Shown: positions 1-63,737, counted from the first letter of the stretch. The stretch is 64,000 nt of DNA from Dehalococcoidia bacterium (GCA_965226745.1 CBDDDS010000001.1:37536-101535); one strand, 5' to 3'. Numbers and translations are program-made. The notes: generated by a model not told the origin, from the letters alone.

Positions 1-1
1 C

Positions 2-586
2 GGACGACGCGTCGACGAAGCGCTCCCCCTGCTGCGGCGGCTGTGGACCGAGGACAATGTCACCCACCATGGCGAGTTCTTCACCCTCAATGAAGTCACC
101 ATTGAGCCCAAGCCTATCCAGCAACCGTGCATCCCCCTCTGGATCGGCGGCCGCAGCAGGGCCGCCCAGCGCCGCGTTGGCCGCCTGGGCGACGGCTGGC
201 TAGCCTCCAGCGCCACGCCAGCCGAGATGGAGGAGGGCGTGGCGCATATCTTCGCCACCGCCGCCGACGCAGGACGCTCAGTCGACGAGGACCACATGGG
301 CGCAACCATCGGCTTCCGCATCGAAGCTGACCGGGACACCGCCTCGGAAATGGCGGCGCCATTTGCCATCCGCCTCCGCCCCGACGCGGACCTCGCCAGC
401 TACACGGCTCTTGGCCCCGCCGAAGACGTGGCCGCCCTTCTGAGGGACTACGTTGCAGCCGGCATTACAAAATTCGTCCTGCGGCCGATGTGCCGCCCCC
501 ACGAAATGGAAGACCAGCTCCGGCGCGTCGGCGAGGACGTCATTCCTCTCTTCCACGCCTCCCCAAAGGAAGCAGCGGCCCGCTAG
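2..586 (+). CDS. LLM-class flavin-dependent oxidoreductase (5'-truncated by window edge)
   Basis: Frame open from base 2: ...LLRRLWTEDNVTHHGEFF...IEPKPIQQPCIPLWIGGRSRAAQRRVGRLGDGWL..., typical luciferase-like monooxygenase motifs; continues into ORF 227..586. Confidence 0.85.
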   Translation, partial: GRRVDEALPLLRRLWTEDNVTHHGEFFTLNEVTIEPKPIQQPCIPLWIGGRSRAAQRRVGRLGDGWLASSATPAEMEEGVAHIFATAADAGRSVDEDHMGATIGFRIEADRDTASEMAAPFAIRLRPDADLASYTALGPAEDVAALLRDYVAAGITKFVLRPMCRPHEMEDQLRRVGEDVIPLFHASPKEAAAR

Positions 587-640
587 GTATGCTTCCCAGG
601 GAGGTTGCTACAAACGCGAGGCGGGACCCCCATCCCGCCT

Positions 641-668
641 AAAAAAGAAACCCCCGGTCTCCCGGGGG
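641..668 (-). terminator. Intrinsic terminator of the priA-ftrC-dtxR unit
   Basis: Minus strand CCCCCGG-GAGA-CCGGGGG followed by TTTCTTTTTT. Confidence 0.7.
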
Positions 669-692
669 CCCACTCCGCCGCCTGAGGCGCCC

Positions 693-1439
693 CTACCCCT
701 CCCTCACCCGAATCCGCGAAGCCGCCTCATATCCCAGCGCAATCTCTGTCCCCTCCTGAGTGCGGAGCGCCATCACGCCCCGGTACGGCGCCGCCTCCAC
801 AACCTCCAATGACGCCCCGGGCAGCACCCCCTGAGCGACCAGATAGCCCAGGAGCTCCACCCCGTGCTCGGGCACCCACGTCACCTCATAGAGTCTACCG
901 GCCACCGCTCCGTCCAACGACAACTCTCCGGTCCGGTCCACGTCCGCGGCGCCAGGGATGGGGTGTCCGAAAGGACACGCCGAAGGATTGCCCAGCCGCT
1001 CGGCTATCTTGCCCTCGGTAAGGGGGGACAGGCCGTGCTCCAGCCGGTGGGCCTCTTCGTGCGCCCGTTCCAGCGGCACGCCAAGCTCGCTGACCACCAG
1101 GCACTCCGCCAAACGGTGACGCCGCACCATTTCCCTGGCCATCCCCCGGCCCTCCCCCGTCAGGCGCACCTCTTTCCCCGGCGTGATCTCTACGAGACCC
1201 TGCCGCGCCATCCGCCGCACCATCCCGGTCACCGACGGCAGCGATGTTCCCTGGTGCTCGGTGGATGCCAGCCCTCTCAGATAATCGGCCACGTGGCCGG
1301 GCGTGACCGCAATGTCATCCTCTTCCAGGATGAAGATGGCCTGAAGGTAGTTCTCAGCCGACGGCGAAAGACGCGGTTGCCCTTCTCCCTGAGCGGCGCG
1401 CCGGGTCTCGTCTCCGGCCACTGTCTCAACCGTGCTCAA
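693..1439 (-). CDS. DtxR/MntR-family metal-dependent transcriptional regulator with FeoA-like C-terminal domain
   Basis: ENYLQAIF, PSVTGMVRRM, RRHRLAE, EAHRLEH, CPFGHPIP motifs. Confidence 0.9.
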   Translation of the reverse strand: MSTVETVAGDETRRAAQGEGQPRLSPSAENYLQAIFILEEDDIAVTPGHVADYLRGLASTEHQGTSLPSVTGMVRRMARQGLVEITPGKEVRLTGEGRGMAREMVRRHRLAECLVVSELGVPLERAHEEAHRLEHGLSPLTEGKIAERLGNPSACPFGHPIPGAADVDRTGELSLDGAVAGRLYEVTWVPEHGVELLGYLVAQGVLPGASLEVVEAAPYRGVMALRTQEGTEIALGYEAASRIRVREG

Positions 1440-1858
1440 GAAGGCCGCTCCTTGCGTTCGATCTCCCGCTCTTCCGCCTTGGCCCGCAGGACCCGCCCCT
1501 TGTCCGGAGTTGGATCCTTCACAAGCCCGTACATCCGGCGTCCCTCGTGGTCTTCCGGGAGGTGCTCAGTGATGGGCAGGCCCTCCTCCGTTACGAACAG
1601 CAGACAGTGGCAGTACTTGTAAATCTGCATGTCGTCGCAGGCGCATATCCACGTCCGGTGTTTGATCTCCTCATCCTTGTCGGGATAGAACCGGCAGGGA
1701 CAGAGAGGCCTTCCTATCTGGTCGACGTTGGCCGCCAGGCCAAGGATCACGCCCTCTTTGACCTCGTCCATGGGATGCGTCGTCGTGCCCGACTTTTCGC
1801 AATACTTCTGCACGAAGTTCCGCATCTTCTGCATCGCTGCTTCGCTGGGTTGCTCCAT
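1436..1858 (-). CDS. ftrC: Ferredoxin:thioredoxin reductase catalytic subunit-like protein
   Basis: CPC-X16-CAC-X8-CHC spacing of the FTR catalytic chain; GLAAN...GRPLCPCR. Confidence 0.85.
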   Translation of the reverse strand: MEQPSEAAMQKMRNFVQKYCEKSGTTTHPMDEVKEGVILGLAANVDQIGRPLCPCRFYPDKDEEIKHRTWICACDDMQIYKYCHCLLFVTEEGLPITEHLPEDHEGRRMYGLVKDPTPDKGRVLRAKAEEREIERKERPS

Positions 1859-1958
1859 GATCTCGGCCTCCGTTACCGGGAGTGATCGATTGGATGCGAG
1901 TCGTCTGGGCGGACTGATTCGACGCCATCGTAGCTGGCGCCCTCCGCACTGGCAAGAG

Positions 1959-4388
1959 CTATGCCACGCTCACCGGGTCAATGTCCACAACCCACCCGGC
2001 CGGCAACTCCACCTGGCTCAGGAAGCCGGCCGGATCGGGGCTCCGTAGCACAACGTGCCAGCGGTAGCGCCCCCGAAGGCGCGCAGGATAGGCTGGGGCC
2101 GGCCCTATCACGGCGCTCTCCGCATCCCCGATGGCCCGTTGGCGCCGCAGCAGCGTCCTGCACAGGCGCTCCGCCTCGCCTTCGCTCAAGGCAGCGTTTG
2201 TATGGCTGTAGGTCAACCGGGCCAGGCGGGAAAACGGCGGGTACAGGAACGACCGCCGAAATGCTATCTCCTGGTGGTAGAAGGCTTCATAGTCCTGGGA
2301 GGCAGCCGCCTGGATCGCATAATTTCCCGGCTGATAGGTCTGGATGATAGCCTCTCCCGCCAGCGTCCCCCGGCCCGCTCTGCCCGCGACCTGGCATAGA
2401 AGCTGAAACACCCTCTCTTGCGCCCGGAAGTCCGGGATGTACAGGCCAAGGTCAGCTAGCATGACCCCAACGAGCATCACATTCGGAATGTGCAGGCCCT
2501 TGGTTACCATTTGGGTGCCCACAAGTATCTGGGCCTCGCCGCGGATGAACTTGTTCAACACCAGGTCCCGCTGGCCGGAAATCGTCGAAACGTCCCTGTC
2601 CCACCTCACCGCCTCCGCCTGCGGGAACAGTTCCTGCGCCTCCTGCAACACCCGCTGCGTCCCTACGCCCAGGTAGCGTATGCGCTTGCTCTGACATGCG
2701 GGGCAGGTGAAGGGGACCCGCTGCGCCCGCCCGCAGTGATGGCAAAGGAGCCGTTGGCGGTCCCCGTGATAGATCATCGGCGTGGAGCAGCTCCGGCACT
2801 CCACGGTGTGCCCGCAGTCGCGGCACTGCACGTGCGTGGAGCTGCCCCGGCGGTTGAGAAACAGGATCACCTGGCTGTCGTGGGCAAGCGCCCTGCCCAC
2901 GGCCTCCTGAAGCGGTTCGCTGAACATCGAGCGATTGCCCGCCTTCAGCTCCGACCGCATGTCCACGACCCGAACGTCCGCCATGGCTCCGATGCCCTCA
3001 ACCTCTTCGGTGGGCCTGATGCGGTTCGGCAGCTTGAGAGCCCGATGCTCGCCGCGCTCTGCCCGGTAGTAGGTTGCGACGTCCGGCGTGGCGCTGCCCA
3101 GCACCACGACAGCGCCGGTCAGCCTGGCAAGCTCCATAGCCGACTCCCGGGCGTGGTACCGCGGCGACGCTTCCCCTTGCTTGTAGGTCCACTCGTGCTC
3201 CTCGTCCAACACAATAAGGCCCGGGTCCGAGAGGGGGGCGAACAGGGCGCTCCGCGACCCCACCACCACGTCAGCCTCTCCTCGGTGCAAACGCCGCCAC
3301 GTCTCCCGCCGCTGTGTCTGGGTCAGTTCGCTGTGCAGCACCGCCACCCGTCCGGGGAAGCGCCGGTTGAACCGGTCCAGCGTCTGAGGCGTCAGCGATA
3401 TCTCCGGCACGAGAATGATGCCCTGCTTCCCCTGGCCCAGCGCCTTTGCCAGCGCCCGCAGGTAGACCTCCGTCTTGCCGCTTCCCGTGACCCCGTGCAG
3501 CAGAAATGTTCGCGGCTGGCCCTGCTGCGACTCCATCGCCGCCTCAATCTGCGCCAGCGCCCGCTGCTGATGCCCCGTGAGTGACGGCGGCGGCTCGGGG
3601 GCAGCGCCCGCATCAACATTGGGAGGCCCCTGGTCCACAACCCGGTCTTCCACCACAAGGCCCTTCCCCAGCAGCCCGGTCACCGTGTGGGCCCCGAAAC
3701 GCCGCCGCGCCTCCGTGGCGCGGATCGGCGGCCCCGCCGTCAATACGGTCTCCAGTAGTGCCGCCTGCCTCTTCGCCCGGCTCTTGGCCAGAATAGCCAC
3801 CGCTCCGGCGTCCACTCCCGGCGTTGTTCGTAGGAAGGCAACGTAGCGTTCCCCCTGAGCGGGACGCCGCCACGTCGCCTGGCGCTCCAGCAGGCCGGCC
3901 CTTTCCAATTTGACGAGCTGCTGCTCCGCCCCGCCGCCAAGCACGCGCTTCAACGTCGGCTGGGGCGTCTGAGGATGCTGTTGAAGGTAGTCCAGCACCG
4001 GCTGCTGGCTTGGGGGCATCGCTTCCACCGAGGCTGCCGCGCCCTTCGGCGTCAGCGACACCACGACAGCCCGACGCCCCAAGGCCCCGGGGGGGAGCAT
4101 CAGCGCCACCGCCTCGTACAGCGAGGCCATGTAGGTCTCGGCAATCCACCGGGCCAATGTCAGTTGATGGGCCCGCAGCAATACGCCGGGATGCACAAGG
4201 TCAACGATGTCGCGCGTCCGCTCGACCTGCGGGTGCTCCGCCAACTCGAACACAATGCCCACGACGTTCCTGGGCCCAAACGGCGCCAGCACGGCCTGCC
4301 CAGGCTGCACGGTCAGAGAGTCAGGAACGCGATAGGAGAACGTGCGGTTTCCCGCTGGCGCATCCACCGCTACTTCTGCGTAGCCCAT
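1959..4388 (-). CDS. priA: Primosomal protein N'
   Basis: GVTGSGKTEVY, VPEISLTPQ, DEEH, double CxxC Zn motifs, QVAGRAGR, DIDP C-terminus. Confidence 0.97.
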   Translation of the reverse strand: MGYAEVAVDAPAGNRTFSYRVPDSLTVQPGQAVLAPFGPRNVVGIVFELAEHPQVERTRDIVDLVHPGVLLRAHQLTLARWIAETYMASLYEAVALMLPPGALGRRAVVVSLTPKGAAASVEAMPPSQQPVLDYLQQHPQTPQPTLKRVLGGGAEQQLVKLERAGLLERQATWRRPAQGERYVAFLRTTPGVDAGAVAILAKSRAKRQAALLETVLTAGPPIRATEARRRFGAHTVTGLLGKGLVVEDRVVDQGPPNVDAGAAPEPPPSLTGHQQRALAQIEAAMESQQGQPRTFLLHGVTGSGKTEVYLRALAKALGQGKQGIILVPEISLTPQTLDRFNRRFPGRVAVLHSELTQTQRRETWRRLHRGEADVVVGSRSALFAPLSDPGLIVLDEEHEWTYKQGEASPRYHARESAMELARLTGAVVVLGSATPDVATYYRAERGEHRALKLPNRIRPTEEVEGIGAMADVRVVDMRSELKAGNRSMFSEPLQEAVGRALAHDSQVILFLNRRGSSTHVQCRDCGHTVECRSCSTPMIYHGDRQRLLCHHCGRAQRVPFTCPACQSKRIRYLGVGTQRVLQEAQELFPQAEAVRWDRDVSTISGQRDLVLNKFIRGEAQILVGTQMVTKGLHIPNVMLVGVMLADLGLYIPDFRAQERVFQLLCQVAGRAGRGTLAGEAIIQTYQPGNYAIQAAASQDYEAFYHQEIAFRRSFLYPPFSRLARLTYSHTNAALSEGEAERLCRTLLRRQRAIGDAESAVIGPAPAYPARLRGRYRWHVVLRSPDPAGFLSQVELPAGWVVDIDPVSVA

Positions 4389-4669
4389 GCTCGCATCCTA
4401 GCGCCGACGCCGGCCTTTGCGCCAGCGCCGCGTGTCACGGTCAACACAGCGGCGTAAGCCCAGGAATCCCGGCGGCCCGGCCATACAACAGCGTTCCACC
4501 CCGCTTGCATCGCCCCTTTGGAAGCGCCCCCCGCCAGCCGGCGGCTAGCCGGAGAGGCTCTTGCCAACCGGTTCCACCACACCGGCGCCCTTCCGGAGGC
4601 AGCCACACAACAGGGAAGGGGCGCCGGCTCGGCGCCCCTTCCTAAGTCTCTCTCCCTGTTCCCACGGGC

Positions 4670-5014
4670 CTACCGGCGCCCGCGCTCCCTGATCCGAGCC
4701 TTCTTGCCGCGCAGGCCCCGCAGGTAGTACAGCCTGGCCCGGCGCACGCGGCCCTGCCGCACAACCTTCACCCCGTCGATGCGAGGCGAGTACAACGGGA
4801 ACGTCCGCTCCACGCCCACGCCATGAGCGACCCGGCGCACAGTGAAAGTGGCGTTGACGCCGCCGCCCCGGCTGCGAATGATCACACCCTGAAACGCCTG
4901 GATGCGCTCCCTCTGGCCCTCCACCACGCGAAAGTCCACCTGCACCGTGTCCCCGGGCCTGAACTGCTCAATCTTTGGGTTGGGCTCTACGGCAACAACC
5001 GCCTGAAGGTCCAT
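4670..5014 (-). CDS. rplS: 50S ribosomal protein L19
   Basis: [34 protein letters not shown]. Confidence 0.98.
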
Positions 5015-5332
5015 GAAATCCTCGAACTACGTCCGTATTCGGTTCTCGTCAGCCACAGATTGTACTAGAGGCCGGCAGCCGCTGTCCAGCAGCAGCCAGC
5101 GCCGCCGAGCGCCATCAACGCCGGGCGCCGACAACTGCCACCCAGGCCTCCGGCAGCTCTCGTATGAGCGCACGAGGATTGACCAAGCCCTTATAGACTC
5201 TATCCTCCGTTGGAACTTACCTTGCCGTCCTCGGCCCTGACGGCCAGCAACACCGCATCTTCCGGCCGTTCACTCGCGGGCGCGTCTATGCCCACTTCTG
5301 CCATCCGCCTCTTCCTTTCACCATCCCGTTGT

Positions 5333-5346
5333 AGTACAGTAGTTCT
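5333..5346. promoter_or_regulatory. Putative LexA (SOS) box
   Basis: AGTAC-AGTA-GTTCT (minus strand AGAAC-N4-GTACT) fits the Gram-positive/Chloroflexi GAAC-N4-GTTC type box. Confidence 0.45.
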
Positions 5347-5507
5347 ATTCACCCTCTGACCTGCACTCTGGCGGTGTGCAAGTAATGATTCGGCAAAGAG
5401 GCCCCAAACAATCAAACACGGCATTCCTCGTAGCCAACCCCCAAACACCCGTTACAAACAATCAAAGATGGGATACGCCTACAGGAAGGCCCATCCGACC
5501 CCATCAC

Positions 5508-6602
5508 CTACCCGTTGGGCAGCAAGACCGGGATCATCGCCTCCATGGTGTCATGGGCTCTGAACGCCTCATTCACCTCTTCCAGAGGATAGTAGTGCGT
5601 GATCAGCTTCTCCACCGGATAACGCACAGCCCCGCTCATCGATTCCAGTGACCGTATGGCCGTCTGCGGCGTTGAGGCCACCACTCCGGTCACGTACAGC
5701 GACTTCCGCACGATGAGCGCGGGGTTGACCGGCAGCAGCCCGTAGTCCGTGTACTGCCCCACCACTACGTACTTGCCGCTCATGCGCACCATCTCCAGCC
5801 CTTCCTGAAAGGCCGTCTTCCCGCCCGAAGCTTCAACAACCACGTCGGCGCCCTTCTCCCCCACCAGCTCCAAAACCCGCTGGACCCGGGCCTCCGGCTC
5901 AGGATAGTCGGCTATGTCGACGGTGAGGTCGGCGCCCATCTCCTTGGCCAGCTCCAAACGGCCGGCCGGCGCGCCAACCACGACCACCAGGGATGCCCCC
6001 GATAGTTTGGCCTGGTTGAGCGCCCCCATCCCAACGGGCCCCGAGCCCTGAACGACCACCGTCTCCCCCACCCTGATGCCGCCGGCCCGCTCGATGGCGT
6101 TCATCGTGGTCTGGTTGCCGATGAGCGACATCAGGGCTCGCTCGCTTGATACGTCGTCCGGGATCCGCAGCAGCCACGGCGTCGGCTTCAAATAGACGTA
6201 CTGGGAGAACCCCCCATTGAGCACCGGAGGGTCGCCCAGCGTGTCGAGACCGTATTTACCGTAGGAGTCGCAGAAGAGCGGCATCCCTATTGAGCAGTAG
6301 TAGCAGTGGTTGCACGGGGTCCCTGAAAAGAGCACCCGGTCACCCTCTTTCAGTGGACGCCCGACAGCGTCCGCTGCCACGCCCCTTCCCATCTGGGCAA
6401 CGGTGCCAAGATTCTCGTGGCCAAAGATGGCGGGGTGAGGCGCATCGGGGTTGTGCCAAGCGTGTACGTCGGTGCCGCATACCGCGGCCAACTGCATCTG
6501 CACGAGCACGGCGCCAGGCTCGACCTCCGGCACCGGGAACTCCCGGACCTCCAAGGGCTTCATGGGCCCCACAAAGACGGCTGCCTTGCTAACGTTGGGC
6601 AT
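5508..6602 (-). CDS. Zn-dependent alcohol dehydrogenase (MDR family)
   Basis: CGTD, GHE, structural CxxCxxC..C, GSGPVG nucleotide-binding motif. Confidence 0.92.
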   Translation of the reverse strand: MPNVSKAAVFVGPMKPLEVREFPVPEVEPGAVLVQMQLAAVCGTDVHAWHNPDAPHPAIFGHENLGTVAQMGRGVAADAVGRPLKEGDRVLFSGTPCNHCYYCSIGMPLFCDSYGKYGLDTLGDPPVLNGGFSQYVYLKPTPWLLRIPDDVSSERALMSLIGNQTTMNAIERAGGIRVGETVVVQGSGPVGMGALNQAKLSGASLVVVVGAPAGRLELAKEMGADLTVDIADYPEPEARVQRVLELVGEKGADVVVEASGGKTAFQEGLEMVRMSGKYVVVGQYTDYGLLPVNPALIVRKSLYVTGVVASTPQTAIRSLESMSGAVRYPVEKLITHYYPLEEVNEAFRAHDTMEAMIPVLLPNG

Positions 6603-6795
6603 GACGACCTCCTGAGAAAATAGCCTGCGGCGCCACCCTCAACAGGCTTGCGCCTCCATCCTCGCCGTTGCTGCGGGAATCGCGTTGGCCCAGGGCCGCC
6701 GACCCCGTCTTTCCGGCGCTCCTCGGTGAACTCAGGCTGGACTCAGGGAAGTACCCCCTTGCCCAGCGTTCAGCAATAGCGCGCCAGCCGGACAC

Positions 6796-7137
6796 TTAGG
6801 ATCCCTGACCACCCATGTGCTTCCGCTTGAGCGCATCCAAATCCAAGTCGATGTCCCAGGTGAGAGGGTGTCCGGGGGGAAGATACTCGTTCTCCACCAT
6901 GACGCCGCAATGGGGGCAGTAGAACTCGATGATGCGGACCCATTCCGGGTCGAACGAGTAGTTGTACTGAGGATGGTCGTTGAGGGGGAAATGAATCTCG
7001 CCGGGGTCCCGCTCATGGACCAAGCAGCCGGTCTTGTAGGACTCGGTGGCGGCAACCAGGTCTCCCTGGCAGCGGTTGCAGCACCACATGTCCCGCTCTA
7101 GGTCTATGCCCAGGTATTCCGTTATCTCGACGCGCAT
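6796..7137 (-). CDS. Acetone carboxylase gamma / acetophenone carboxylase small subunit family protein
   Basis: ITEYL, CxxC, SYKxGC, WVRIIEFYCPxCG, EYLPPGHP motifs. Confidence 0.85.
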   Translation of the reverse strand: MRVEITEYLGIDLERDMWCCNRCQGDLVAATESYKTGCLVHERDPGEIHFPLNDHPQYNYSFDPEWVRIIEFYCPHCGVMVENEYLPPGHPLTWDIDLDLDALKRKHMGGQGS

Positions 7138-7153
7138 CGGCGGATCCTCTTCC

Positions 7154-7549
7154 CTAGTCTGGTTGGAAAAGGGGCATGCCCGAATCGCCGAACGTAATCC
7201 GGACGGGCATGCCCACGTATACGTCCTCAGGGGCGCATCCCACCACGTTGCTCATCAGCAGCGGGCCTTCGTCGAGCTCCACCAGTCCAACGACGTAGGG
7301 CACAGGCCAGTCTTCGGGCACGGGACGCATACGGAGATGCACCACCGTGTAGCTGTACACCTGCCCCCTGCCGCTCACCTCCCGCCAGTCCGGGTCGGAA
7401 GCGCCGCAGGCGGGGCAGAACAACCGGGGATAGTGGGCAAAGGCGCCGCACGACCGGCACTTGGGAAGGACCAAGCGGCCCTCCCTCGCGGCGTCCCAGA
7501 ACGGAAGCGTCGCCTCGGTCTCGGGTGGGGTGAAAACGTTATCGGCCAC
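7154..7549 (-). CDS. Zn-ribbon/OB-fold (DUF35) protein, thiolase partner
   Basis: PFWDAAREGRL, CxxC...CPxC, G.G.VYSYTVV, VELDEGP; GTG start at 7549 just after the thiolase stop. Confidence 0.9.
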   Translation of the reverse strand: MADNVFTPPETEATLPFWDAAREGRLVLPKCRSCGAFAHYPRLFCPACGASDPDWREVSGRGQVYSYTVVHLRMRPVPEDWPVPYVVGLVELDEGPLLMSNVVGCAPEDVYVGMPVRITFGDSGMPLFQPD

Positions 7550-7554
7550 GGAGG

Positions 7555-8727
7555 TCAGTCCCTCGCCAGAACCATGGTGTGATGATTGGACACCCATCCC
7601 GCAATGGAGGTGGCTATCGCCAGCTCGGCATCAGGGACCTGGCGCTCCCCGGCCTCCCCTCTCAGTTGCAGCGACGCCTCGATCACCCTCCTCATACCTG
7701 CGAGGTGGGCAAACGACAGCAACCCGCCGTCCGTATTCACGGGGCAGCGTCCCTTGCCCAACTCCAACCCGCCGTCCATGGCGTATTGGCCTGCCTCGCC
7801 CTCTCCGCAGAGTCCTATGCCCTCAACCTGAAGCAGAAGGGCAATGCTGAAGCAGTCGTACAGCTCCGCCACGTCGATGTCCTCGATGGTAACCCCCGCC
7901 ATACCCAGAGCCGCCGCCGCCGAGTCCCGCACCCCGAAGCTGTGCAGCCGCGGCGCCTGGCTCACCATCCAATGCGTCGTCTTGCTCCCAACGCCCAGAA
8001 CGCGGACGGGCCGCTGTCTCAGGTTCCTGGCCCGCTCCAACGTCGTCACCACGAAGGCCGCGCCCCCGTCGGTGATCACGGCGCAGTCTGGAACCCGCAG
8101 GGGCTCGGCCACCATACGCGCGCCGGGATAGTTCTCCCAGGTCAGAGGCTCCTGCCGGAAGGCCCCAGGCGTCATCGCCGCGTGCTTCCGCTCCGATATG
8201 CCCACCGCGGCGAACGACCCCTCCGGCGCGTTGTAGTCGTGAAGATAGCGCCGGGCCAGGAGCGCATAGTGGATGGGAGCGGGGATGCCGCCGTAGGGCT
8301 GCTCGTACTCGTCACCTATCATGGAGAACGAAGCCGGAAGCCCCGTGACGCCTCTCGAAGCGGTGTTGGCGCTCTCTCCAAACACGCACAGCGCCACCTC
8401 CGCCAGACCCGACTCGATGAGGCTTACGGCCTGCGTCAGCAGCGTCCCCGAGACGGAGCCGCCCGCCAACGTCATGGCAACAGGCGGGTCCACGCCCATG
8501 TATTCGGCTAGGGACTCGGCGTTGAAGAAGGTGGGGCGCAAAAACGGACTCTGGCAGAGCCAGGCATCCACGTCGCTGGGCGACAGCCCCGCGTCGTCAA
8601 GGGCAAGGCGGGCGGCCTTCACCTGCAACTCCAACACCGAGTACTGCGGTAGCCTGCCCACGTCGGTGTTGCCTATGCCGGCAATGGCAAGGGGTTTCGT
8701 AAAAGCCCTTCTGGGATGGGACGTCAT
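7555..8727 (-). CDS. Thiolase-family (SCP2-thiolase-like) protein
   Basis: AIAGIG, DCAVITDGGAA, ELYDCF, VNTDGGLLS, QLRGEAGERQV. Confidence 0.9.
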   Translation of the reverse strand: MTSHPRRAFTKPLAIAGIGNTDVGRLPQYSVLELQVKAARLALDDAGLSPSDVDAWLCQSPFLRPTFFNAESLAEYMGVDPPVAMTLAGGSVSGTLLTQAVSLIESGLAEVALCVFGESANTASRGVTGLPASFSMIGDEYEQPYGGIPAPIHYALLARRYLHDYNAPEGSFAAVGISERKHAAMTPGAFRQEPLTWENYPGARMVAEPLRVPDCAVITDGGAAFVVTTLERARNLRQRPVRVLGVGSKTTHWMVSQAPRLHSFGVRDSAAAALGMAGVTIEDIDVAELYDCFSIALLLQVEGIGLCGEGEAGQYAMDGGLELGKGRCPVNTDGGLLSFAHLAGMRRVIEASLQLRGEAGERQVPDAELAIATSIAGWVSNHHTMVLARD

Positions 8728-8760
8728 TGTGGAGACCCAGCCTCCCTTTGCTGAGGCGCC

Positions 8761-8788
8761 ATTATACGGTGCGCCATGGGGATGTCAA
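8761..8788 (-). promoter_or_regulatory. sigma70-type promoter for the thiolase operon
   Basis: Minus strand TTGACA-16-TATAAT perfect hexamers ~35 bp upstream of the start. Confidence 0.7.
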
Positions 8789-8955
8789 AGTCCCTTCCTG
8801 CAAGCGTTCCAGACTCGGACGGAGGCGAACCCCTCCGTCCGCCCTTCGCCAATCTTGCGCCCAACGGAGACCTCTGCAAAACCCGGACAGTGGAACAGCG
8901 CGGACACTTTCTGTGCAACTAGGGATGTTCTGAACAGGCCCCCAGCCCCTCCCTC

Positions 8956-8984
8956 TTGCAAAACAAGAACTTTTGTGCTATTAT
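8956..8984 (+). promoter_or_regulatory. sigma70 promoter with LexA-like box in the spacer (element copy 1)
   Basis: TTGCAA-17-TATTAT with extended -10 TG; AGAAC-TTTT-GTGCT at 8966-8979. Confidence 0.6.
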
Positions 8985-9058
8985 ATCGTCAAGATGCTAA
9001 AGTCTCTCCAAAAGGTGGGCCGCCGGCCCACTCCTCTCTCGGCGCCGGCATACGGATA

Positions 9059-9190
9059 CGCGACGGATACGCGACGGATACGCGACAGCTCCGCGACGGA
9101 TGCGCGACAACTCCGCGACGGATGCGCGACAACTCCGCGACGGATGCGCGACAACTCCGCGACGGATGCGCGACAACTCCGCGACGGCTC
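9059..9190. repeat. Tandem array of 12 x 11-bp CGCGAC-N5 units
   Basis: Tails GGATA, GGATA, AGCTC, then (GGATG, AACTC)x4, GGCTC. Confidence 0.95.
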
Positions 9191-9441
9191 CGTGCCTGCA
9201 CCCTCCGAGGTCCGGCTGACAAGCGTAGCCAACATATAATCAGAGGCCACGCTTTTCCCTCGCGGGAACCCTCTGTCCCTATCCCCGTACCTGCGGAAAG
9301 GTTTGGAAGCGTCACTGAGTGACCGAGGCGCCCCGGGCGGGCGGTCCAATTGGCGTGACGGCTAGTGGTGGCAAACGCCGCTTATGCAAAGGTCTCCGAA
9401 GGCCGTAGGAAAAGGGCATCCGGCAGAGCCGGGGCCCCTGC

Positions 9442-10452
9442 TCATCCCACCTGGAACACCAGGTAGACCCCCGCCACGTACAACGCCACGATGGCGCCGC
9501 TGCTTAGCGGCGCCGCCAGAGGCGAACGTCCCGCCCGGCGCAGCAGCAGGATCTGCCCCGTGCCCATGATAATCAGGGCGCAGGCGATTAAACCCGCCGC
9601 CGTATGACTGCGATCCAAAGCGGCGAACACTGACCCCTTGGTGTAGGCGAGGTCGGCAACACCCAGCGCCATCACGTTGAACGCGTTGCTGCCATAGATC
9701 CCTGCCAGGGCAAGGTCCGGTGCCCCAATGCGCAACGCCGTAGCTGTGGCGGTCATCTCAGGCAGCGTGGTGACAATGGACACCAGCAAGACACCCACGA
9801 AGCTCTGGGACAGCCCGGACTCCTCGGCGATGCCCGCCGCCGCGTTCGCCAGTAGCGGAGCCGATAGGAAAATTGCTGTCGCGCAGGCCAGGAAGACCAG
9901 CACTCCCCAGCGGAGCGAGTGCCCGGCTTCCTCTTCGTCCGCCTCATAAGCGTCATCCTGTCCGGACGAAGCGTTCTTCAGCACCCAGGAACCCGCCATA
10001 TAGAAGAGGATGAGCAGCGGCCCGGCAATGTTGACCCCCACCTCCACGTCCAGCCGGACAATGGCGAAAACAGTGGCAGCGCCAGTCATGGCGAGGGCCA
10101 GAAAGGCCACCGTCACCTGCTGCGGCAGGACCGACTGAAAGAGATGCCGGCCCCCCAGCAGAAGGGCCATGGCGGAAAGGGTCGCCATGTTCAACATGTT
10201 GGCCCCGAATATGTTGCCCGCCGCCAACGACGGAGCGTCGATGCGCACCGCCGTCACGTTGGTCACCAACTCCGGCAGCGAGGTCGCGCCGGCCAGGAGA
10301 AGTGTCCCCGCCCAGAGACGCCCCAGCGGCGTCCTCAGAGCGATTACGTCCCCAGACTTCGCCAAAAACGCCGCGGCGCCAACGACCACCGCGGCGGCAA
10401 CGGCAAACAGCCCAATGTAGCCGCCCAGCGACAGATTGAGGGATAGGTCCAT
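9442..10452 (-). CDS. Sodium:calcium antiporter (CaCA family) membrane protein
   Basis: Alpha repeats GATSLPE...GNIFGAN and IVTTLPE...GIYGSN; about 10 TM segments. Confidence 0.88.
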   Translation of the reverse strand: MDLSLNLSLGGYIGLFAVAAAVVVGAAAFLAKSGDVIALRTPLGRLWAGTLLLAGATSLPELVTNVTAVRIDAPSLAAGNIFGANMLNMATLSAMALLLGGRHLFQSVLPQQVTVAFLALAMTGAATVFAIVRLDVEVGVNIAGPLLILFYMAGSWVLKNASSGQDDAYEADEEEAGHSLRWGVLVFLACATAIFLSAPLLANAAAGIAEESGLSQSFVGVLLVSIVTTLPEMTATATALRIGAPDLALAGIYGSNAFNVMALGVADLAYTKGSVFAALDRSHTAAGLIACALIIMGTGQILLLRRAGRSPLAAPLSSGAIVALYVAGVYLVFQVG

Positions 10453-10479
10453 ATGAGTCCTTCAGCCTACGTTACCAAT

Positions 10480-10510
10480 ACAACAACAGGCGGGCCGAAC
10501 GGCCCGCCTG
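10480..10510 (-). terminator. Terminator hairpin in the leader of the antiporter (possible attenuator)
   Basis: Minus strand CAGGCGGGCC-GTTC-GGCCCGCCTG then TTGTTGT, under 30 nt before the ATG. Confidence 0.6.
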
Positions 10511-10647
10511 ACCGGACACACCAGGCTTTGAAAGCGTACTGGAAACACGGCCCAAGCGGAAGAAACGCCATCGGAGCAAGCCGGGGAACGCACGGGAAGG
10601 TTCCGCCAACGCCATCCCGCCGGTCCCTGCCCAGAGCGGAGTCAAAC

Positions 10648-11427
10648 CTACTCCGCTGTTCCCGCAGGACCTACATACCCATGCCCGGCCAGAAACTCCA
10701 AGTCCTCTTTGCCAAGGCAGGCGCGGGCCAGCAGGTCGGGGCGCCGGCGCAACGTCCGCAGCAGCGACTGCTCACGCCGCCACCGGTCCACCTCGCCGTG
10801 GTTGCCGGACAGCAGGACCTCCGGAACGTCCCAGCCCTGAAACGAGCGCGGCCGGGTGTATTGCTGGTGCTGGAGCAGACCCGAGCTGTGCGAGTCTTGT
10901 GCCACGCTCCGGGGGTCGCCGACAACGCCAGGCTGCAGCCGGGCCACGGCATCAATGATTACGACCGCGGCGGGCTCGCCGCCGGTCACCACGAAATCGC
11001 CCAGGCTGATCTCGTCTGTAGCCACGCGCTCCCGCACTCGCTCGTCCACGCCCTCGTAGTGGCCGCAGATCAAAACAATGTCCCCGTGGGCGGCAAGCTC
11101 CTCAGCGACGCCCTGGTTGAATAGGCGGCCCTGGGGACTCAGCAGAATCACCGGCGCCACGGAGGCCTCCCCCTGCGATTCCTCCTGAGCGATGACTTGG
11201 CGCACGGCCTCCACACCCCTGGCCAGCGGCGCCACCTTCATCAGCATTCCGCTGCCTCCGCCGAACAGGTAGTCGTCGGCGGTGCGATGGCGGTCGTCGG
11301 TGTAGTTGCGAATGTCATACAGCCGCACATCAAGGATGCCGGCGGCCACGGCGCGGCCAAGTATGCTGGTCTGCAAAGGGCTATCGAAGAAGCCGGGGAA
11401 CAGCGTCAGAAGGTGGAAACGCATCAT
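10648..11427 (-). CDS. trmD: tRNA (guanine37-N1)-methyltransferase
   Basis: [52 protein letters not shown]. Confidence 0.97.
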
Positions 11428-11432
11428 ACGCC

Positions 11433-11957
11433 CTAGTGGCGATGGTGTTTCGGGTGAGCCTCGCCCGCGATGATCTCCGCGGCGTGATGAAGCACGGGTT
11501 TCACCACCGCCAGGCACTGGCGCACCCCGTTGGGGCTACCCGGCAGGTTCACGATGAGGGTCTGGCCCCGCACGCCCGCCACGGCGCGGCTGATCATGGC
11601 CATCCGCGTATGCTGCAAAGACTCCGAGCGCATTGTCTCGGCGATGCCCGGCGCCTCCCGCTCGATAACGCCCAGCGTCGCCTCCGGGGTCAGGTCGTAG
11701 GGGCCAAGGCCCGTCCCGCCGGTCGTGAGAATCACATTGAGCTTGTCCTCATCCGACCAGCGATTCAGCCGATCCTGGATGGCGGCAACGTCGTCAGAGA
11801 CGATCTCGTAGCGCCGAACGACGAAGTCCTCGCCAGCCAGGTCCTCCTTGATGGCCTCGCCGCTCGCGTCGGCCTGCTCCCCCCTGAAACCTCTGGTGCT
11901 AATAGTCAGCACGCCTACGGTGACAGCCACTGTACCTCCCGTGAATGCTCCGCTCAT
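11433..11957 (-). CDS. mog: MogA/MoaB molybdopterin adenylyltransferase
   Basis: [38 protein letters not shown]. Confidence 0.92.
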
Positions 11958-12031
11958 CTTCCCAATTTCCGCCATCCAAACCCAGCTTGCCGCGTAGCCA
12001 TTGCGGCGTTGGCGATGCACTACTTGATTCA

Positions 12032-26889: not shown

Positions 26890-26924
26890 ACGGCCCCTCC
26901 AGCAGTGGAGGGGCCGTTTTCTTT
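26890..26924 (+). terminator. Intrinsic terminator
   Basis: ACGGCCCCTCCA-GCAG-TGGAGGGGCCGT followed by TTTCTTT. Confidence 0.8.
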
Positions 26925-27116
26925 ACAGAGTGGGGCCCCCGGCCCAAGAGTCCGAGCGCCGCCAAAGGTATCAACGGAGGGCCTACAAGCACGGCGGGGC
27001 GTCTGCGGTGGTTATAAGCCGGCCCACCTCAACCCACATAGCGCGCTTCGCGGCACATTGACCAACGTCGCTCTTGCGGGTATCGTGAGTGTCATCCTGC
27101 CGTTGGCTGGTTATTC

Positions 27117-37435: not shown

Positions 37436-38290
37436 CTACCGCCGCCGTCTACGGACATACGCCAGGGCGGCGCCTACCACGAGGACTATCCCAGCAACCA
37501 CCAGGACGATCAACCATGCCGACACGCCGCCGCCACTCGACTCCTGTGCTGGAGGCGCGGGGGGAGCGGCCGTTGCAGGGGCGGCAGTCGGTCCGGGCGC
37601 CGAGGTGGCGGTTGGCGTCGGCGCGAGCGTGGGAGTGGGCGTCGGCGTCGGCGCGATGGTCGGCGCCAGCGTTGCCGTGGCAGTCGATTGCAGCGTTGGC
37701 GCCGATGTCGGCGCGGGTGTCAGCGTGGGCGCGGGCGTCGGTGTGGGCGTGGGCGCGGGTGTCGGAGTTGGCGCGGGCGTCGGCGTTGGCGTAGGCGCGG
37801 GTGTCGGGGTTGGCGTGGGTGTCGGAGTTGGCGTAGGGGTAGGCGTAGGTGTGGGTGTCGGGGTTGGCGGAGGGCCTACTCGTATACTGGAAGCGCCGCC
37901 CACCGATGCCTCCACTCTGTTCACATCCTTGATGGTCCCGGAGAAAACGTAGGAACCCTCGGCGGCGGGGGCGGTCACGGCATACGTAAAGGTTTCCTCC
38001 CCCAGCAGCGTGAAGGTGACGGTCTGGCCGTCAACGGCAACCTGAGATTCAGACAGGCCGGAGCCTGCGTAGGCGAACCCGGCGGGCAGCGTCTCCACGA
38101 CCTGCCCAAGACTGCCGTATCCGGTGGGGGCAATCGTGACCTCCAAACGCCCGCCCGGGAGCACCGACGACGCGGAGAAGGACCTGACTGCCCCGTGCGA
38201 CGTCGCCTCCACTGGAGCAGAGTGCAACAGCCCCACTACCCAAAGAGCCGCCCCGGCAACCGCCAACACCGCCAACGCTTTCCTGACCAA
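37436..38290 (-). CDS. Exported surface protein with Pro-Thr linker and C-terminal TM anchor
   Basis: Signal peptide, beta-rich domain, (PT)n linker, SSGGG-TM-RRRRR tail. Confidence 0.8.
37610..37872. repeat. Pro-Thr coding microsatellite
   Basis: Degenerate 6-bp GG(C/T)GT(C/G/T) repeats encoding PTPTPT on the minus strand. Confidence 0.85.
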
Positions 38291-38344: not shown

Positions 38345-41300
38345 TCAGCCGGCGAAGTAGACCGTGATGACCGCTATCGCCTCTTCCTTGCTGATGACCC
38401 CATTGAAGTAATCGACGGCCGCCGCGATAGCCTCGTCCCGTTCGACCACTCCGTTGTCGTCCTTGTCATACTGGCCAACCATGCCCTCCAACCCCACGTT
38501 GAGCACCGCGATCGTCACTGCGATGTAGCCCCCGGCCCCCGGCCATCCGCTACGCGCACGACCACGGAGTAGCTGCTCTTGGTCTCGTAGTCCAGGGGGA
38601 CATTGACCCGCAACTGGCCCGTCGCCGGATGCAAGACGAAGAACTGGGGGTCGGCGCCGCTCAGGGTGTAGGCCAGCGCGTCGCCGTCGGGGTCCCTGGC
38701 CGCCACCGGAGCGCCGATGTACTGGCCCACCACCGCGTTCTCGGCCACCGAGCGCGCGGTGACGGCGCCGTCGATGAACGACGGCGACCGGTTCGAAGGC
38801 GCGCCGCCTCCGCCGCCTCCACCGCTGCCTCCGCCCGTTATCGGTGGTGGCGGGGGCGGTGGAGGCGGTGGAGGCGGGGTTTCCCGAGCGGTTGCGGTCG
38901 CCTCGTTTGAGCATTCGGCGTCGCCGTCGGCGTTGACGGCGCGCAACTGGTAGGTGTAGATCGTTCCAACCGACACCTGGCTGTCCCGGTACGTTGTAGC
39001 CGCGACGCTAGGTCCGGGAGTGACGAGAGCATAGCTCTCGCCGGCCTCCTTGCGTTCCAGCTCGTATCGGGTGATGGGGCTACCGTTGTCGCCCGGTGTG
39101 CTCCACGTCACGTCAATGTGTGCACTCGCTCCTGATGCCCGCAGATTCGTGATCTGCCGCGGCGCCGCAACCAACTCCGTCGTGACCGAGTCGTCATTGT
39201 CCCCCGGCATCCGATCGAGTTGGTCTCCTTCGGCCGTAGCCTTGAAGCCAATGTCCCCCGAGGCGTTGTCGGTGACCTCGACAACAATCTCGCCCTCGGC
39301 GGTGTCGCTGAGCCCAACGGTTCCAAGCGAGCACGTGACAGTGCGGCCGGAGCGCCTGCACTGACCGGTTGACGGCGCCGAGACACTAGCCGAGACAAAG
39401 GTCACGCCGGCATCCAGCGTTGCGGTGAGAACCGTGTTGGTGGATGCGGCCGGCCCGCTGTTGATGACTGCCCAATCGTAGGTGATCTCATCCCTCGGCG
39501 AGGCGATGCTACGGTCGGCGTTGACCGTCGTCCGCAAGTCCACCAGCGAGGCAATATCGTCCGTGGTGGTCACCGTCGCGGTCATGTCGCCCCGCAGCAG
39601 GTACGGTTGGCTCGGGCCTACGAACGCCAACACAACGCGGAACGTCTCAAGCGGCTCGTTGACCGTGTCATGTTCAACGTTCACGGTGAAGTCGCGCGAA
39701 GCCACCCAGCGAGACTCGCCGTCCACTGTGGTCCGGGAAAAGTCGTTGCGTTCGAACGTTTCCGTCACGGACAGCGGCTCGTAGTCCGAGGGCTGCCTTG
39801 CGGCGCCATTGACTGTGTTCACCGTGAATTCGAAGGCGAACCCGCTCTCCGGGCGCTTGTCCGTTGAGGTGACCGCCCTGCCGCGCAGGGTAACCGCCGT
39901 TGTCTGGCCGGGACTCGTGGGCTCCTCCGCGGTGAACTCCGTCTCCTCCCATCCAAGCGTGACCGGCGCGTGGTCGTTGTCGGCAATGGTCACCGTCGCA
40001 GTGTCGGGACCTCCCTGCAGATGGGGGAGGCTTGAGTCGGAGTAGTTCAGGGTTACCTTGAAGTCCTCGTTCGGCTCGTCGCCGGTGTCATCGATGATGG
40101 AAACGCTGATGTCCCGGGTTGCCTGGAAACGGAATTGGCCCCCCACGTCAGTGCGCGTGAAGTCGCCCTGGCCGAACCTGAAGCTGCTGGTCAGCCTCCG
40201 ATAGTCCGAGCCTTGGGTGGCGGTGTCGTCGGCCGTCGTTGCGGACAGGGGGACGGTGAAACCGCTCTCCGGCATTTTGTCCGACGCGGTGGTAGCCCGG
40301 GCCTGCAGGGTGATCGTTGTCGCATCCTCGTCGACGCTCACGAACGACTGGTCCCAGCTGATCGTGACGGGTACGAAGTCGTTGTCGGTGATCTTTACGC
40401 TCATAATGGCTGGTCCGCCCTGCAGGTGAGACGGGCCGGGATTCGCGTACTCCATGGTGACCGTGAAGTCCTCATCATCTTCGTCGGATGTGTCATCCAC
40501 AATGGGCGCCAGCACTTGCTTTGCGGCGCGATAGCGGCGTTCGCCGTTGACGGTTACCCGGCTGAAGTCGTTCCGGCTGAAAGTGACGGTATCGTCCACC
40601 TGCGTATAGTCGCCGGGCTGAGCCGCGCTGCCGTTAGATGTAGAGATGGAGGCGTCGAAGGAGAATCCGTCTTCAGGCCGCTTGTCCACAGTGGTGACGG
40701 CGTAGGCGCGCAGTGTGGCGCTTCCGGCGTTCTCACCGACCGTTATGTCTGACCGTTCCCAGCTGAGAGTAACTGGAACGTGTTCGTTGTCCTTGATTGT
40801 GACGACTACCGTAGAGGGCCCTCCCTGGAGATGCCTGAGGCCGGGAGTCAGGTAGGCCAGCCTTACGTTGAAGGCTTCGTCCGATTCATCCACTGTGTCG
40901 TCTATGATGGCTACGGTGAAATCCCTGGTTGCGCGGTATCGCTGCTGGCCGTTCACGTCGGTCTGGCTAAAGTCGCTCGCGACAAAGGTCGCGGACGAAG
41001 GCGGAGCCGGGTAGTCGTCGTCTTGGGTCGTGGCGGTATCGGTGGTGGTCAGACTCACATCGAAGGTGAAGTCAGCCACCGGCGGCGCGTCCAGTGTGGT
41101 TGTGAAGACTGCCCTCAGAACTACGCTCCCGGCGTCCTCGGCCACTTCAATAGAGGTCTCTTCCCACTGCAACGTTACGGGTATATCGTCCGGCAGCGGA
41201 GTGCCGGTCTCTGTGTCAGACCATGCTCCATCCCCCGCGGAGTTGACGGCCCGCACCTGTACGTCGTACTCCGTCGTGTTTGTGAGATTGGAAATGACAT

Positions 41301-44300: not shown

Positions 44301-44955
44301 CCTTCTCGTCAACCGCCCGCATCTGCACGTCGTACTCCGTGCCGTTGGTCAGGCCGGTGACGGCGTAGCTCAAACTGCCATCGCCGTCTCCCCAGGCATC
44401 CTCCTCCACAGTCCAGTTGGCGTCCACCGCCTCATCTGCGCTGGTCTCGATGTAGCGCACGTCGTACGCCGCGACTCCGGTGGTGATTCCGGTGGGAGCG
44501 CTCCAGGAAACCAGCACGGCCTGGTCGTCAGCGCGAACGGAATCGACGGTGAGAGCGGGCAAGGCCGGCGTCCCGACCTCAGTTGGAGACCAGATCCCGT
44601 CTCCGTTGGAGTTTACCGCCCGCACCTGCACGTCGTACTCCGTGCCGTTGGTCAGGCCGGTGATGGTGTATTCCAGCGCGCCGGATGTCCAGGCGTTGTC
44701 CTCGACAGTCCAGTTGGAGTCAATCGTCTCATCCGCGCTGGTCTCGATGTGACGCACGTCGTAGGCCATGATGCCGGTTTCGCCGGCGGGAGCGGTCCAT
44801 GCAACGGTGAGTGTGGTATCTCCAGAGGATACGGAGTCGAAGGTAGGCGCGGCGGGCACAGACTGCGCGCTGGCGTAGCCCAGGGCCAGCACTAGGCAGA
44901 GCATGGCGCATCCCGCCGCCCACAGCAATCTGGCCGGGCTGACCATCCTGGTCAT
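38345..44955 (-). pseudogene. Giant secreted protein (~2200 codons): FN3x2, PPC-like repeats, kexin-like S8 peptidase + P domain, FN3s, Calx-beta repeats, DUF11, FN3, cadherin, EF-hand-like tail; interrupted twice
   Basis: S8 motifs VDDG/HGTAVAG/AAGN/GTSAATP; in-frame TAG at 41608-41610 links ORFs 41608..44955 and 38515..41448; frameshift near 38535. Confidence 0.8.
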
Positions 44956-45034
44956 GGGATAGATGACTCCGAAGAGACGTTAGCTTGCACAGGAAAAGTG
45001 GGTCACAACAACCCGTGGTATCCGCAGGCAGCAA

Positions 45035-46551: not shown

Positions 46552-46752
46552 TACGCCACACCCATCCGGTCGGAGGAGGGCGGGGTAGAGTCCGTCGGCG
46601 TCACCATACAGGATATGACGCCCCTGGAGCAGATGGAACGGCTTCGGGCCGAGTTTTTCGGCATTCTGAGCCACGAGCTGCGGACGCCGCTAACCTCCGT
46701 CAAAGGCTCAGCCGCCACGCTCACCGAGGAGGCGTCCGACCTGGACCCCGTA
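46552..46752 (+). pseudogene. PAS/histidine kinase (HisKA) fragment
   Basis: VTIQDMTPLEQMERLRAEFFGILSHELRTPLTSVKG; no HATPase domain follows. Confidence 0.75.
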
Positions 46753-47494: not shown

Positions 47495-47509
47495 GAGGTG
47501 ATTGGCAAC

Positions 47510-63663: not shown

Positions 63664-63737
63664 ATCGTCATGATCCCAGAGAGTCTCCAAGAAGCGGGCC
63701 GCTGCCCCACTCCTTTCCTAGCGCCGGGATACGGTTA

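Follow-up and report, generated by a model that had tools for sequence, protein, structure and literature searches.

A promoter and tandem-array repeat family of two sister SAR202 genomes, with a probable origin in a phage packaging cassette

Two colinear copies in the window

The DNA analysed here, a stretch of 64,000 nucleotides from a Dehalococcoidia bacterium (GCA_965226745.1, CBDDDS010000001.1:37536-101535; hereafter the window), carries two copies of an intergenic repeat element, copy A (8866-9397) and copy B (63548-63922), which are colinear and about 80% identical. A first reading, made from the sequence alone, had paired 8867-~9308 with 63548-~63912 at this level of identity, and alignment upheld it. 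A MAFFT alignment of 8800-9420 with 63490-64000 is colinear from 8867/63548 to ~9312/63920 (mean column identity 78% over 630 columns, with the non-homologous flanks counted), and BLASTN of copy A against copy B aligns 249 nt at 80.3% (E 4e-58) and 172 nt at 79.7% (E 1e-33), one stretch to each side of the tandem array. The order of parts is the same in both copies, as the same reading had stated and as judged from the sequence and from the arrays reported by Tandem Repeats Finder (TRF). A left arm with an end like that of an insertion sequence (IS) is followed by a promoter block (P), a short GC hairpin, a tandem array, a conserved block (B) and the 3' hairpins (Table 1). The promoters read TTGCAA-17-TATTAT in copy A and TTGCAA-17-TATAGT in copy B. 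The array of copy A has a period of 11 with 12.8 copies, or a period of 22 with 6.2 copies and 95% matches; that of copy B has a period of 11 with 5.5 copies. In copy A the second 3' hairpin is degenerate, and the outer end near 9396 is the inverted left end. Copy A points at an antiporter gene's 3' end, and the transfer-messenger RNA (tmRNA) gene ssrA lies directly downstream of copy B in the same orientation.

A lineage-specific modular repeat family

The window's own genome (G000; 3.17 Mb in 5 contigs, 64% GC, 95% complete) was compared with a sister genome (G001) and a third genome of the genus (G002). The element had been described as present twice, which is true of the window but not of the genome, where iterated nhmmer searches found 126 promoter blocks and 71 conserved blocks. 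P lies upstream of B on the same strand at 70 of the 71 B matches, mostly 290-345 nt away, and in all-against-all BLAST the family homology extends from about -200 to +400 around P. A core of ~150 nt is carried by 85 copies; it is missing from a minor subfamily of ~18 copies with CGCGAC-type arrays, to which both window copies belong. Two further modules resemble repetitive extragenic palindromes (REP). The palindromic U module (GGGTACAGGGGGAGTCCCCCTGTACCC) has 155 matches in G000 and the T module (a hairpin plus AAGGTTAGGAAGGGGG) has 290, ~97 of them solitary loci; an example of these REP-like modules lies just upstream of the window (C1:29099-29282). U and T join P-B units in many orders, and the four modules together form a mosaic repeat system.

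The downstream gene is co-oriented with the element in 57 of the 126 copies and opposed to it in 69, the four configurations of flanking genes are similarly frequent, and 12 copies overlap a called gene, all as judged with a crude gene caller based on GC content at third codon positions. The near-even split between orientations rules out a general role as gene leader or portable promoter.

Host range is narrow. Across 401 genomes of the order, a promoter-pattern search allowing one mismatch gave 117 matches in G000, 135 in G001, a single one in G002 and one or two in 23 of the 398 others, so that by this pattern the multi-copy family was not found in any of those 398; the reversed pattern, run as a control, had 0 matches in the 401. 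BLAST of the module against 40 relatives matched G001 alone. In metagenome contigs the left-arm pattern had 0 matches and the block B pattern had 15, every one without any other module, and these are therefore taken to be chance matches. REP or REPIN elements mobilised by a REP-associated tyrosine transposase (RAYT) were ruled out, there being 0 matches to the Y1 (IS200-like) transposase family PF01797 in the 95%-complete G000. With many intergenic copies, conserved end modules around a variable tandem module and this narrow host range, the family is a lineage-specific, non-coding, modular interspersed repeat that has reached over 100 copies in a pair of sister SAR202 genomes. The first reading could place it in no described family; Rfam gave no match either, and a full-text literature search (SAR202 repeats and intergenic regions; LexA or SOS boxes with repeats or MITEs, the miniature transposable elements with inverted repeats; supplements aside) turned up no description of it.

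A LexA-type box in the promoter block

The proposed TTGCAA-17-TATNNT promoter stood up to comparison with the host, whose tRNA and tmRNA promoters share with P the strong-promoter architecture TTGnnn-17-TGCTAnnnT. In the information profile of P the -35 element, the spacer GAAC and TGTGCTA lie at ~2 bits, next to three spacer positions at 0.2-1 bit; unconstrained sites have therefore drifted while constrained ones have not. Most of the 126 copies score above 38 bits and few decayed promoters were seen.

The consensus of the Gram-positive-type SOS box is GAAC-N4-GTTC. Of 125 P copies, 105 have a variant, GAAC-N4-GTGC, which overlaps the promoter as a host-type SOS box does in a LexA regulon. 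The same variant stands just downstream of the recA promoter of G000 (GAACGAATGTGC), and G000 lexA carries CGAACATGCGTTCC plus GCACGCATGTGC, overlapping the -10. Ten loci were fetched from the 23 genomes of the order with one or two pattern matches; of nine inspected, two, from two other families, proved to be the promoter of a LexA gene (Pfam LexA_DNA_bind and Peptidase_S24). Because the same box occurs at recA in G000 and at lexA in two other families, we infer that P is a LexA-repressed (SOS) promoter. A second candidate promoter within block B, TGACAA-12-TATAAT, was rejected for its wrong spacing.

Native copies head a terminase cassette

Terminase genes adjoin 2 of the 126 G000 copies and neither of the window copies. 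The two family copies concerned, at C3:272991 and C3:55373, are 86% identical over 2 kb; in both, block B or an equivalent leader is followed by an open reading frame (ORF) for a 153-aa Zn-ribbon protein and then by a 428-aa large terminase (TerL; Terminase_6N/6C). About 2 kb beyond one cassette lies a portal gene, whose own neighbours are not phage-like, and the cassette with its portal region looks like a phage remnant; a search for an HK97-type capsid gave no match in the 95%-complete G000. Some ten further copies retain just the ribosome-binding site and first codons of the small gene. In G002, which is without the repeat family, the sole P-like promoter, with its 5' hairpin, drives a homologous pair of small-protein and TerL genes. 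The module would thus be the amplified control region, promoter plus long leader, of a phage-derived packaging cassette. An outcome that the first reading had named as speaking against its proposal, the 5' remnant of a known gene family, is in part what emerged, since the module corresponds to the promoter and leader of a small-protein/large-terminase cassette. A candidate derivation of the short elements from the terminase unit by internal deletion was set aside: the tail after one TerL gene is the generic REP-like T module, with 290 matches and ~97 solitary loci, and is therefore uninformative on such an origin.

Five genomes of other families (G067, G130, G155, G093 and G053) each carry a single-copy P-like promoter of SOS type, followed by a hairpin and then by short motifs (TGTTCCA, TGTCACA, TGTCTCA) with a phasing, by eye, of ~10-11 nt. 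A 146-aa ORF comes next after the motifs in G067 and G130, and that of G067 matches small-terminase PHROGs (E 7e-6 and 1e-5). In two such loci an orphan small-terminase-like gene lies downstream, among housekeeping genes (lspA, rluD-like). The Zn-ribbon protein of G000 has no PDB sequence match below E 0.2, and its hhalign comparison with the small-terminase-like ORF of G067 gave a probability of 0.3. In phage SPP1 the direct repeats of the pac site run across promoters and into the beginning of the gene for the small terminase (PMC4737164), a layout that agrees with the module being the control region of a packaging cassette. The likeness to a pac region of the SPP1/SF6 type stops short at the window copies, which have no terminase genes, and the small protein of the cassette has no small-terminase match.

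Copy A is a passenger between IS5-type ends

The IS-like left end noted at first is a real IS end, matching the terminal inverted repeat (TIR) of an IS5-family element that is present in G000 in five copies, 99.9-100% identical, with a DUF772 plus DDE_Tnp_1 transposase. Both TIRs of copy A match the ends of the IS at C5:553537-554755. Copy A itself encodes no transposase, as had been stated, and has no conserved ORF. It forms a TIR-bounded unit of 532 bp that is exactly absent from the orthologous site of G001, where flanks of 96-97% identity abut at G001:2967420/1, corresponding to window positions 8862 and 9396 (breakpoints 8862/8863 on the left and 9395/9396 on the right). IS5-type inverted repeats enclose copy A as their passenger, and the two genomes are polymorphic for its insertion or deletion.

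Within -400 to +1000 of P, TIRs stand on both sides of 1 of the 126 copies, namely copy A, and a single IS or MITE end lies near 13 others. The IS5-type element therefore moved copy A and did not spread the family, which is not a MITE. Carriage on a non-autonomous mobile unit, as first proposed, thus describes copy A, a TIR-bounded unit missing from its sister site, but not the family. All five IS copies sit in loops of REP-like T hairpins (CCCCC-GTAC-GGGGG type), which suggests a preference of this IS for hairpin-loop targets and explains why IS copies are found close to elements.

Copy B and recombination between copies

The left part of copy B, to ~63629, is orthologous to a stretch that follows a major facilitator superfamily (MFS) gene in G001, beyond which G001 has unrelated DNA. 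From ~63750 onwards copy B is orthologous (94%) to an element between smpB and ssrA in G001; smpB of G000 lies elsewhere, beside another minor-subfamily copy. The two parts of copy B thus map to two different G001 loci, and copy B is a recombinant, with the old element from upstream of ssrA as its 3' half. The G001 order smpB-element-ssrA places that element before the split of G000 and G001.

Fifteen other G001 loci were compared with G000. L032 and L081 are colinear with their G000 counterparts, as are L035 and L036 except for an internal gap; in L033/L034 the orthology is partial. L077 and L083 are present in G001 only. In at least 5 of the 15 (L037, L043, L079, L080 and L084) the flanks map to different places in G000. 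Among the remainder, L045 is the MFS locus, L078 is the G001 counterpart of a terminase cassette, L085 had one flank matched and L082 had no match. The conserved blocks evidently act as recombination substrates, to judge from these sequence comparisons.

At one intergenic site, window 26916-27019, G001 has a 787-nt family element (T, B and P, on the minus strand) where G000 has 102 nt of unrelated sequence; the boundaries are ragged, and the G000 stretch holds a hairpin resembling the 5' hairpin of the family. Some 1.3 kb upstream of copy B (window 61500-62201), the C-terminal part of an ORF resembles, by eye, a fragment of a DDE (rve-type) integrase or transposase.

The tandem array and its relation to block B

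The array units share the skeleton ACGG/ACAA-N-T-N-CG..., with cores that vary by copy (GTAAC/GTAAT, GTTAC/ATTAC, CGCGAC and others), and array length varies among copies. The variable segment of block B follows the array core: 23 copies with GTAAY arrays carry GTTAC there, and 14 copies with NTTAC arrays carry GTAAC. The complementarity reaches 8-10 nt and tolerates G:U pairs. Its mean within a copy is 6.5 nt by Watson-Crick pairing and 7.5 nt when G:U is allowed; the means are 5.5 from one copy to another and 4.6 with shuffled segments. In the window subfamily it is weak, at 3 nt in copy A and 6 nt in copy B. Such complementarity could reflect pairing of RNA or of single strands, or protein sites in both direct and inverted orientation. 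The array was also considered as a series of CsrA-type GGA loops, an idea rejected because these occur in copy A and not in copy B.

Coding capacity, RNA structure and transcription

A leaderless small protein was ruled out. An ATG is missing in 28 of the 126 copies and one more has no recognisable -10; the other 97 give ORFs of 2-177 aa, and in copy A the reading frame depends on array length. The missing start codons and the spread of ORF lengths therefore mark the family as non-coding.

The first reading had also described a structured element whose hairpins keep pairing despite sequence change. Neither part of this was confirmed: folded as RNA, the window copies have z-scores of -1.19 and -0.72, and the hairpins showed no compensatory changes. 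Overall, the stability of the 3' hairpins does not exceed that of shuffled sequences (mean z -0.65), with 4 of 28 copies below -2 and copy B at -3.0. RNAalifold found no consensus structure for the block B region, and for the ~150-nt core and the 5' hairpin stems it showed invariant or one-sided changes only. Searches of Rfam, over the window at the gathering threshold and over five loci at E<=1, matched a tRNA in the window and the tmRNA beside copy B and no family for the element.

Four RNA runs (X1-X4) were examined as contigs, which cannot show transcript ends and in which regions without cover are uninformative. In the X1 metatranscriptome one 182-nt contig (depth 2.6) corresponds to 9210-9391 with 1 difference. 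X1 contigs also cover 8047-8564 and the adjacent thiolase-like gene, and leave 8812-9209, 9416-11500 and the downstream genes without cover; none of the contigs of X2-X4 falls on the element. The claim that the element is transcribed thus has one contig over part of copy A behind it, which we regard as a weak hint of transcription.

Interpretation and alternatives

We consider it reasonably probable that the family is an SOS-type promoter/array repeat that arose from the leader of a phage packaging cassette and was multiplied more than 100-fold, with copy A an IS5 passenger and copy B a recombinant. Each copy would form a transcription unit of its own, which LexA would keep silent and DNA damage would switch on. 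The helically phased array may be a row of binding sites for the small DNA-binding protein of the cassette, like the pac/promoter repeats of the SPP1 type, and would grow and shrink by slippage. The highly conserved P and B blocks would provide portable homology through which copies recombine, giving rise to mosaic elements and chromosome rearrangements. The family itself would have spread mainly by recombination or by other means, the IS5 element having mobilised copy A only.

Several points weigh against this interpretation. The strong conservation of P and B could come in part from gene conversion rather than selection. The Zn-ribbon protein belongs to no Pfam family and matches no small-terminase PHROG, only weakly some of unknown function, and its AlphaFold2 model is unusable (predicted local distance difference test score, pLDDT, 55.5). 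Among copies with GTAAY or NTTAC arrays and a GTTAC or GTAAC segment in block B, array and segment are concordant in 37 of 40 and discordant in 3, and this complementarity, with its G:U-compatible changes, points to RNA or single-strand pairing and not to protein sites. A cognate protein for the CGCGAC-type arrays of the window is hypothetical. At copy A there is no clean target-site duplication (flanks CCCAACG on the left and CGAAGG on the right, against CCCGAAGG at the empty site), and the boundaries of the G001-only locus L077 are ragged and of a substitution type. The 182-nt RNA contig may come from DNA carry-over, and LexA binding, SOS induction and a transcript start at P are predictions from sequence.

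One alternative, which we think unlikely, is that the copies are free-standing genes for a small RNA, a trans-acting transcript of 300-450 nt in which the 11-nt units serve as a sponge or pairing platform and the DNA features are incidental. Retention of a complete promoter in every copy and orientation independent of neighbours agree with it, as do the conserved ~150-nt core with predicted stems shared by the majority of copies and the RNA-library contig over part of copy A. So does the correspondence between array core and B-segment core, which are reverse complements in the great majority of scorable copies and whose GTAAT/GTAAC variants stay G:U or G:C compatible. It is hard to reconcile, however, with the lack of an Rfam match, the unremarkable folding of the whole transcript, stems of the core and 5' hairpin that show invariant or one-sided changes only, and the CGCGAC subfamily of the window, which is without the core and barely complementary between array and B. 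Moreover, motifs and families that are unrelated all keep to a period of 11 nt, so that phasing on the DNA helix fits better than RNA.

It is equally doubtful that the copies are functionless selfish or neutral repeats, with an array that is a plain minisatellite and a conservation that stems from recent spread or ongoing gene conversion. The distribution of the family would suit this, multi-copy in two of three genomes of the genus and in none of the 398 others of the order, with the block B pattern giving only chance matches in metagenome contigs; module swapping and rearrangements are frequent, and array length differs between copies. Within the 60-nt promoter window, however, randomised positions (0.2 bit) stand beside invariant ones, which argues against recent spread, and decayed promoters are few, most copies exceeding the 38-bit mark given above. 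Four of the six first-examined minor-subfamily loci of G001 (L032-L036), and L081 in addition, lie at orthologous G000 sites with 91-96% identity, so that copies persist.

A third possibility, which we hold to be improbable, treats the arrays as dispersed pac-like loading sites, on which small protein and TerL would assemble to give about 100 SOS-switched starts for packaging or cutting. On cleavage of LexA the cassette would be expressed and the arrays opened by transcription, one subunit would bind per turn of DNA, and TerL would cut or package; this sequence of events we likewise hold to be improbable. Were it correct, the chromosome would undergo packaging initiated at many sites (distributed lateral transduction, or something like a gene-transfer agent) or programmed cutting. 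The native module directly upstream of the small-protein and TerL genes, the portal gene 2 kb beyond one cassette and the small-terminase-like ORF behind a similar array in G067 all speak for such a system. It is opposed by the failure to match an HK97-type capsid in the 95%-complete genome, by portal neighbours that are not phage-like, by a Zn-ribbon protein that is not recognisable as a small terminase and by the presence of at least three array motifs against only two cassette copies; a packaging role would also leave retention of the promoter in every copy unexplained. An ordinary IS5-derived MITE family, with all copies scattered by an IS5-type transposase, is very improbable, for although copy A, with its two TIRs, varies in presence between genomes, copy B keeps the left arm that bears a TIR and the five near-identical IS copies look active, paired TIRs are confined to copy A with single ends at just 13 others, the left-arm pattern found nothing in metagenome contigs, and the IS copies are themselves inserted in REP-like hairpin loops.

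If the SOS control of P that we favour is correct, a free-living marine bacterium has more than 100 LexA-controlled promoters that drive no gene. Spread by a repeat, these would enlarge the SOS regulon very greatly; they could titrate LexA and seed rearrangements, and could send antisense or read-through transcripts into neighbours, into the 3' end of the antiporter gene at copy A and toward the tmRNA gene at copy B. The family would also document how the control region of phage packaging genes can become a repeat found throughout a genome, and copy A is a tangible example of a promoter module that was captured and moved by an IS5-type element. In annotation, the loci are better masked as one repeat family than entered as repeated novel RNAs.

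Comparison with known systems

In P the LexA-type box is placed between the -35 and the -10 elements, an arrangement shared with the lexA promoters of G028 and G197, and the GTGC variant occurs at recA of G000. The predicted operator of P differs from usual LexA-repressed promoters in occurring more than 100 times per genome with no SOS gene behind it. Modular repeats with variable middle units and about 100 intergenic copies include BOX of Streptococcus pneumoniae (boxA-boxB(n)-boxC) and the bacterial interspersed mosaic elements (BIMEs) built from REP in enterobacteria. The present family resembles these in its modularity, its mosaics with REP-like palindromes and its role as recombination substrate, a likeness of organisation. 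No BOX or BIME is known to have a complete SOS-type promoter or an origin in a phage packaging leader, and unlike REP/BIME systems with RAYT, G000 has no RAYT/Y1 transposase. Copy A recalls the mobile insertion cassettes and MITEs that carry passengers, which have IS-type TIRs, a passenger in place of a transposase and presence or absence between close genomes; it departs from mobile insertion cassettes in that its passenger is a non-coding promoter/array module and not a gene, and in having no clean target-site duplication.

Among described repeats the closest analogue is the BrickBuilt MITE of Porphyromonas gingivalis, whose unit is 23 nt long and which is present 19 times in strain ATCC 33277, with small inverted repeats at its own ends (Klein et al. 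2015, PMC4596501). Both are intergenic, species-restricted and multi-copy, with a leader, a spacerless array of short units and a tail, and with promoter elements. Unlike BrickBuilt, the present family has an 11-nt unit, more than 100 copies and TIRs on one copy only, borrowed from an IS5-family IS, together with a LexA-type box in the promoter and a probable derivation from a terminase-cassette leader.

For the pac/promoter region of the SPP1/SF6 type, PMC4737164 describes direct repeats over a promoter, upstream of the gene for a small DNA-binding subunit and then of TerL, and the likeness holds for the two native copies only. The one-turn spacing of the arrays would fit a ring of DNA-binding domains, as in that type, and the same text gives the SPP1 box repeats little effect on binding. 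Unlike SPP1/SF6, the window copies are without terminase genes and the small protein is a Zn-ribbon protein that does not match small terminases.

Table 1. Parts of the two window copies and related loci (window coordinates unless a contig or locus is named)
Feature	Position	Strand	Basis or remark
Copy A, left arm with IS5-type TIR GGAGACCTCTGCAAA (8866-8880)	8866-8918	+	~22 of first 26 nt equal the left end of the IS5-family IS G000:C5:553537, by eye
Copy A, C-rich upstream stretch (CTAGGG...CCCC)	8919-8955	+	common to other minor-subfamily copies; homology of several copies begins at 8919
Copy A, predicted promoter: -35 TTGCAA 8956-8961; LexA-type box GAACTTTTGTGC 8967-8978; extended -10 TGCTATTAT 8976-8984	8956-8984	+	nhmmer block
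Copy A, 5' GC hairpin GTGGGCC-GCC-GGCCCAC	9015-9031	+	read from sequence; in all subfamilies
Copy A, tandem array, 11-nt period, 22-nt super-unit ACGGATGCGCGACAACTCCGCG	9052-9192	+	TRF
Copy A, conserved block B (GGCTCCGTGCCTGCA...CCGGCTGACAAGCGTAGCCAACATATAATCAGAGGCCAC)	9186-9250	+	nhmmer
Copy A, 3' hairpin TTCCC-TCGC-GGGAA (9255-9268) and degenerate REP-like tail module	9255-9312	+	T-module matches
Copy A, right arm with inverted TIR (reverse complement of 9383-9397, GGAGACCTTTGCATA)	9313-9397	-	IS5-family IS end; G001 breakpoint
Copy B, left arm (TIR-like GAGACCTTTGCAAAA, 63548-63562) and C-rich upstream stretch	63548-63634	+	aligned to copy A
Copy B, predicted promoter: -35 TTGCAA 63635-63640; LexA-type box GAACTATTGTGC 63646-63657; -10 TATAGT 63658-63663	63635-63663	+	
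Copy B, tandem array, 11-nt period, 5.5 units, CGCGAC cores	63731-63791	+	TRF
Copy B, conserved block B	63788-63852	+	alignment to copy A, nhmmer
Copy B, 3' hairpin TTCCCCC-CTC-GGGGGAA (63856-63872) and REP-like tail module	63856-63922	+	
ssrA promoter TGTGCTACAAT and tmRNA start (from 63965, runs past window end)	63933-64000	+	neighbour of copy B, outside the element; Rfam RF00023, 149 bits, L005 1918-2272
IS5-family IS copies in G000	C5:553537-554755, C5:155435, C5:694063, C3:7375, C3:42768		
P-like promoter loci in other families	L065 (G067), L066 (G130), L068 (G155), L069 (G053), L070 (G093)		

Other observations

On contig C3 of G000, positions 1-12000 and 39363-51363 form a 12-kb inverted duplication of 99.85% identity in which a portal gene and an IS copy are included; the duplication may be genuine, or an artefact of assembly at the contig end. 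At 37710-37869 the window has a further tandem repeat, with a period of 42/18 (GGCGCGGGTGTCGGAGTT...), probably within a coding region.

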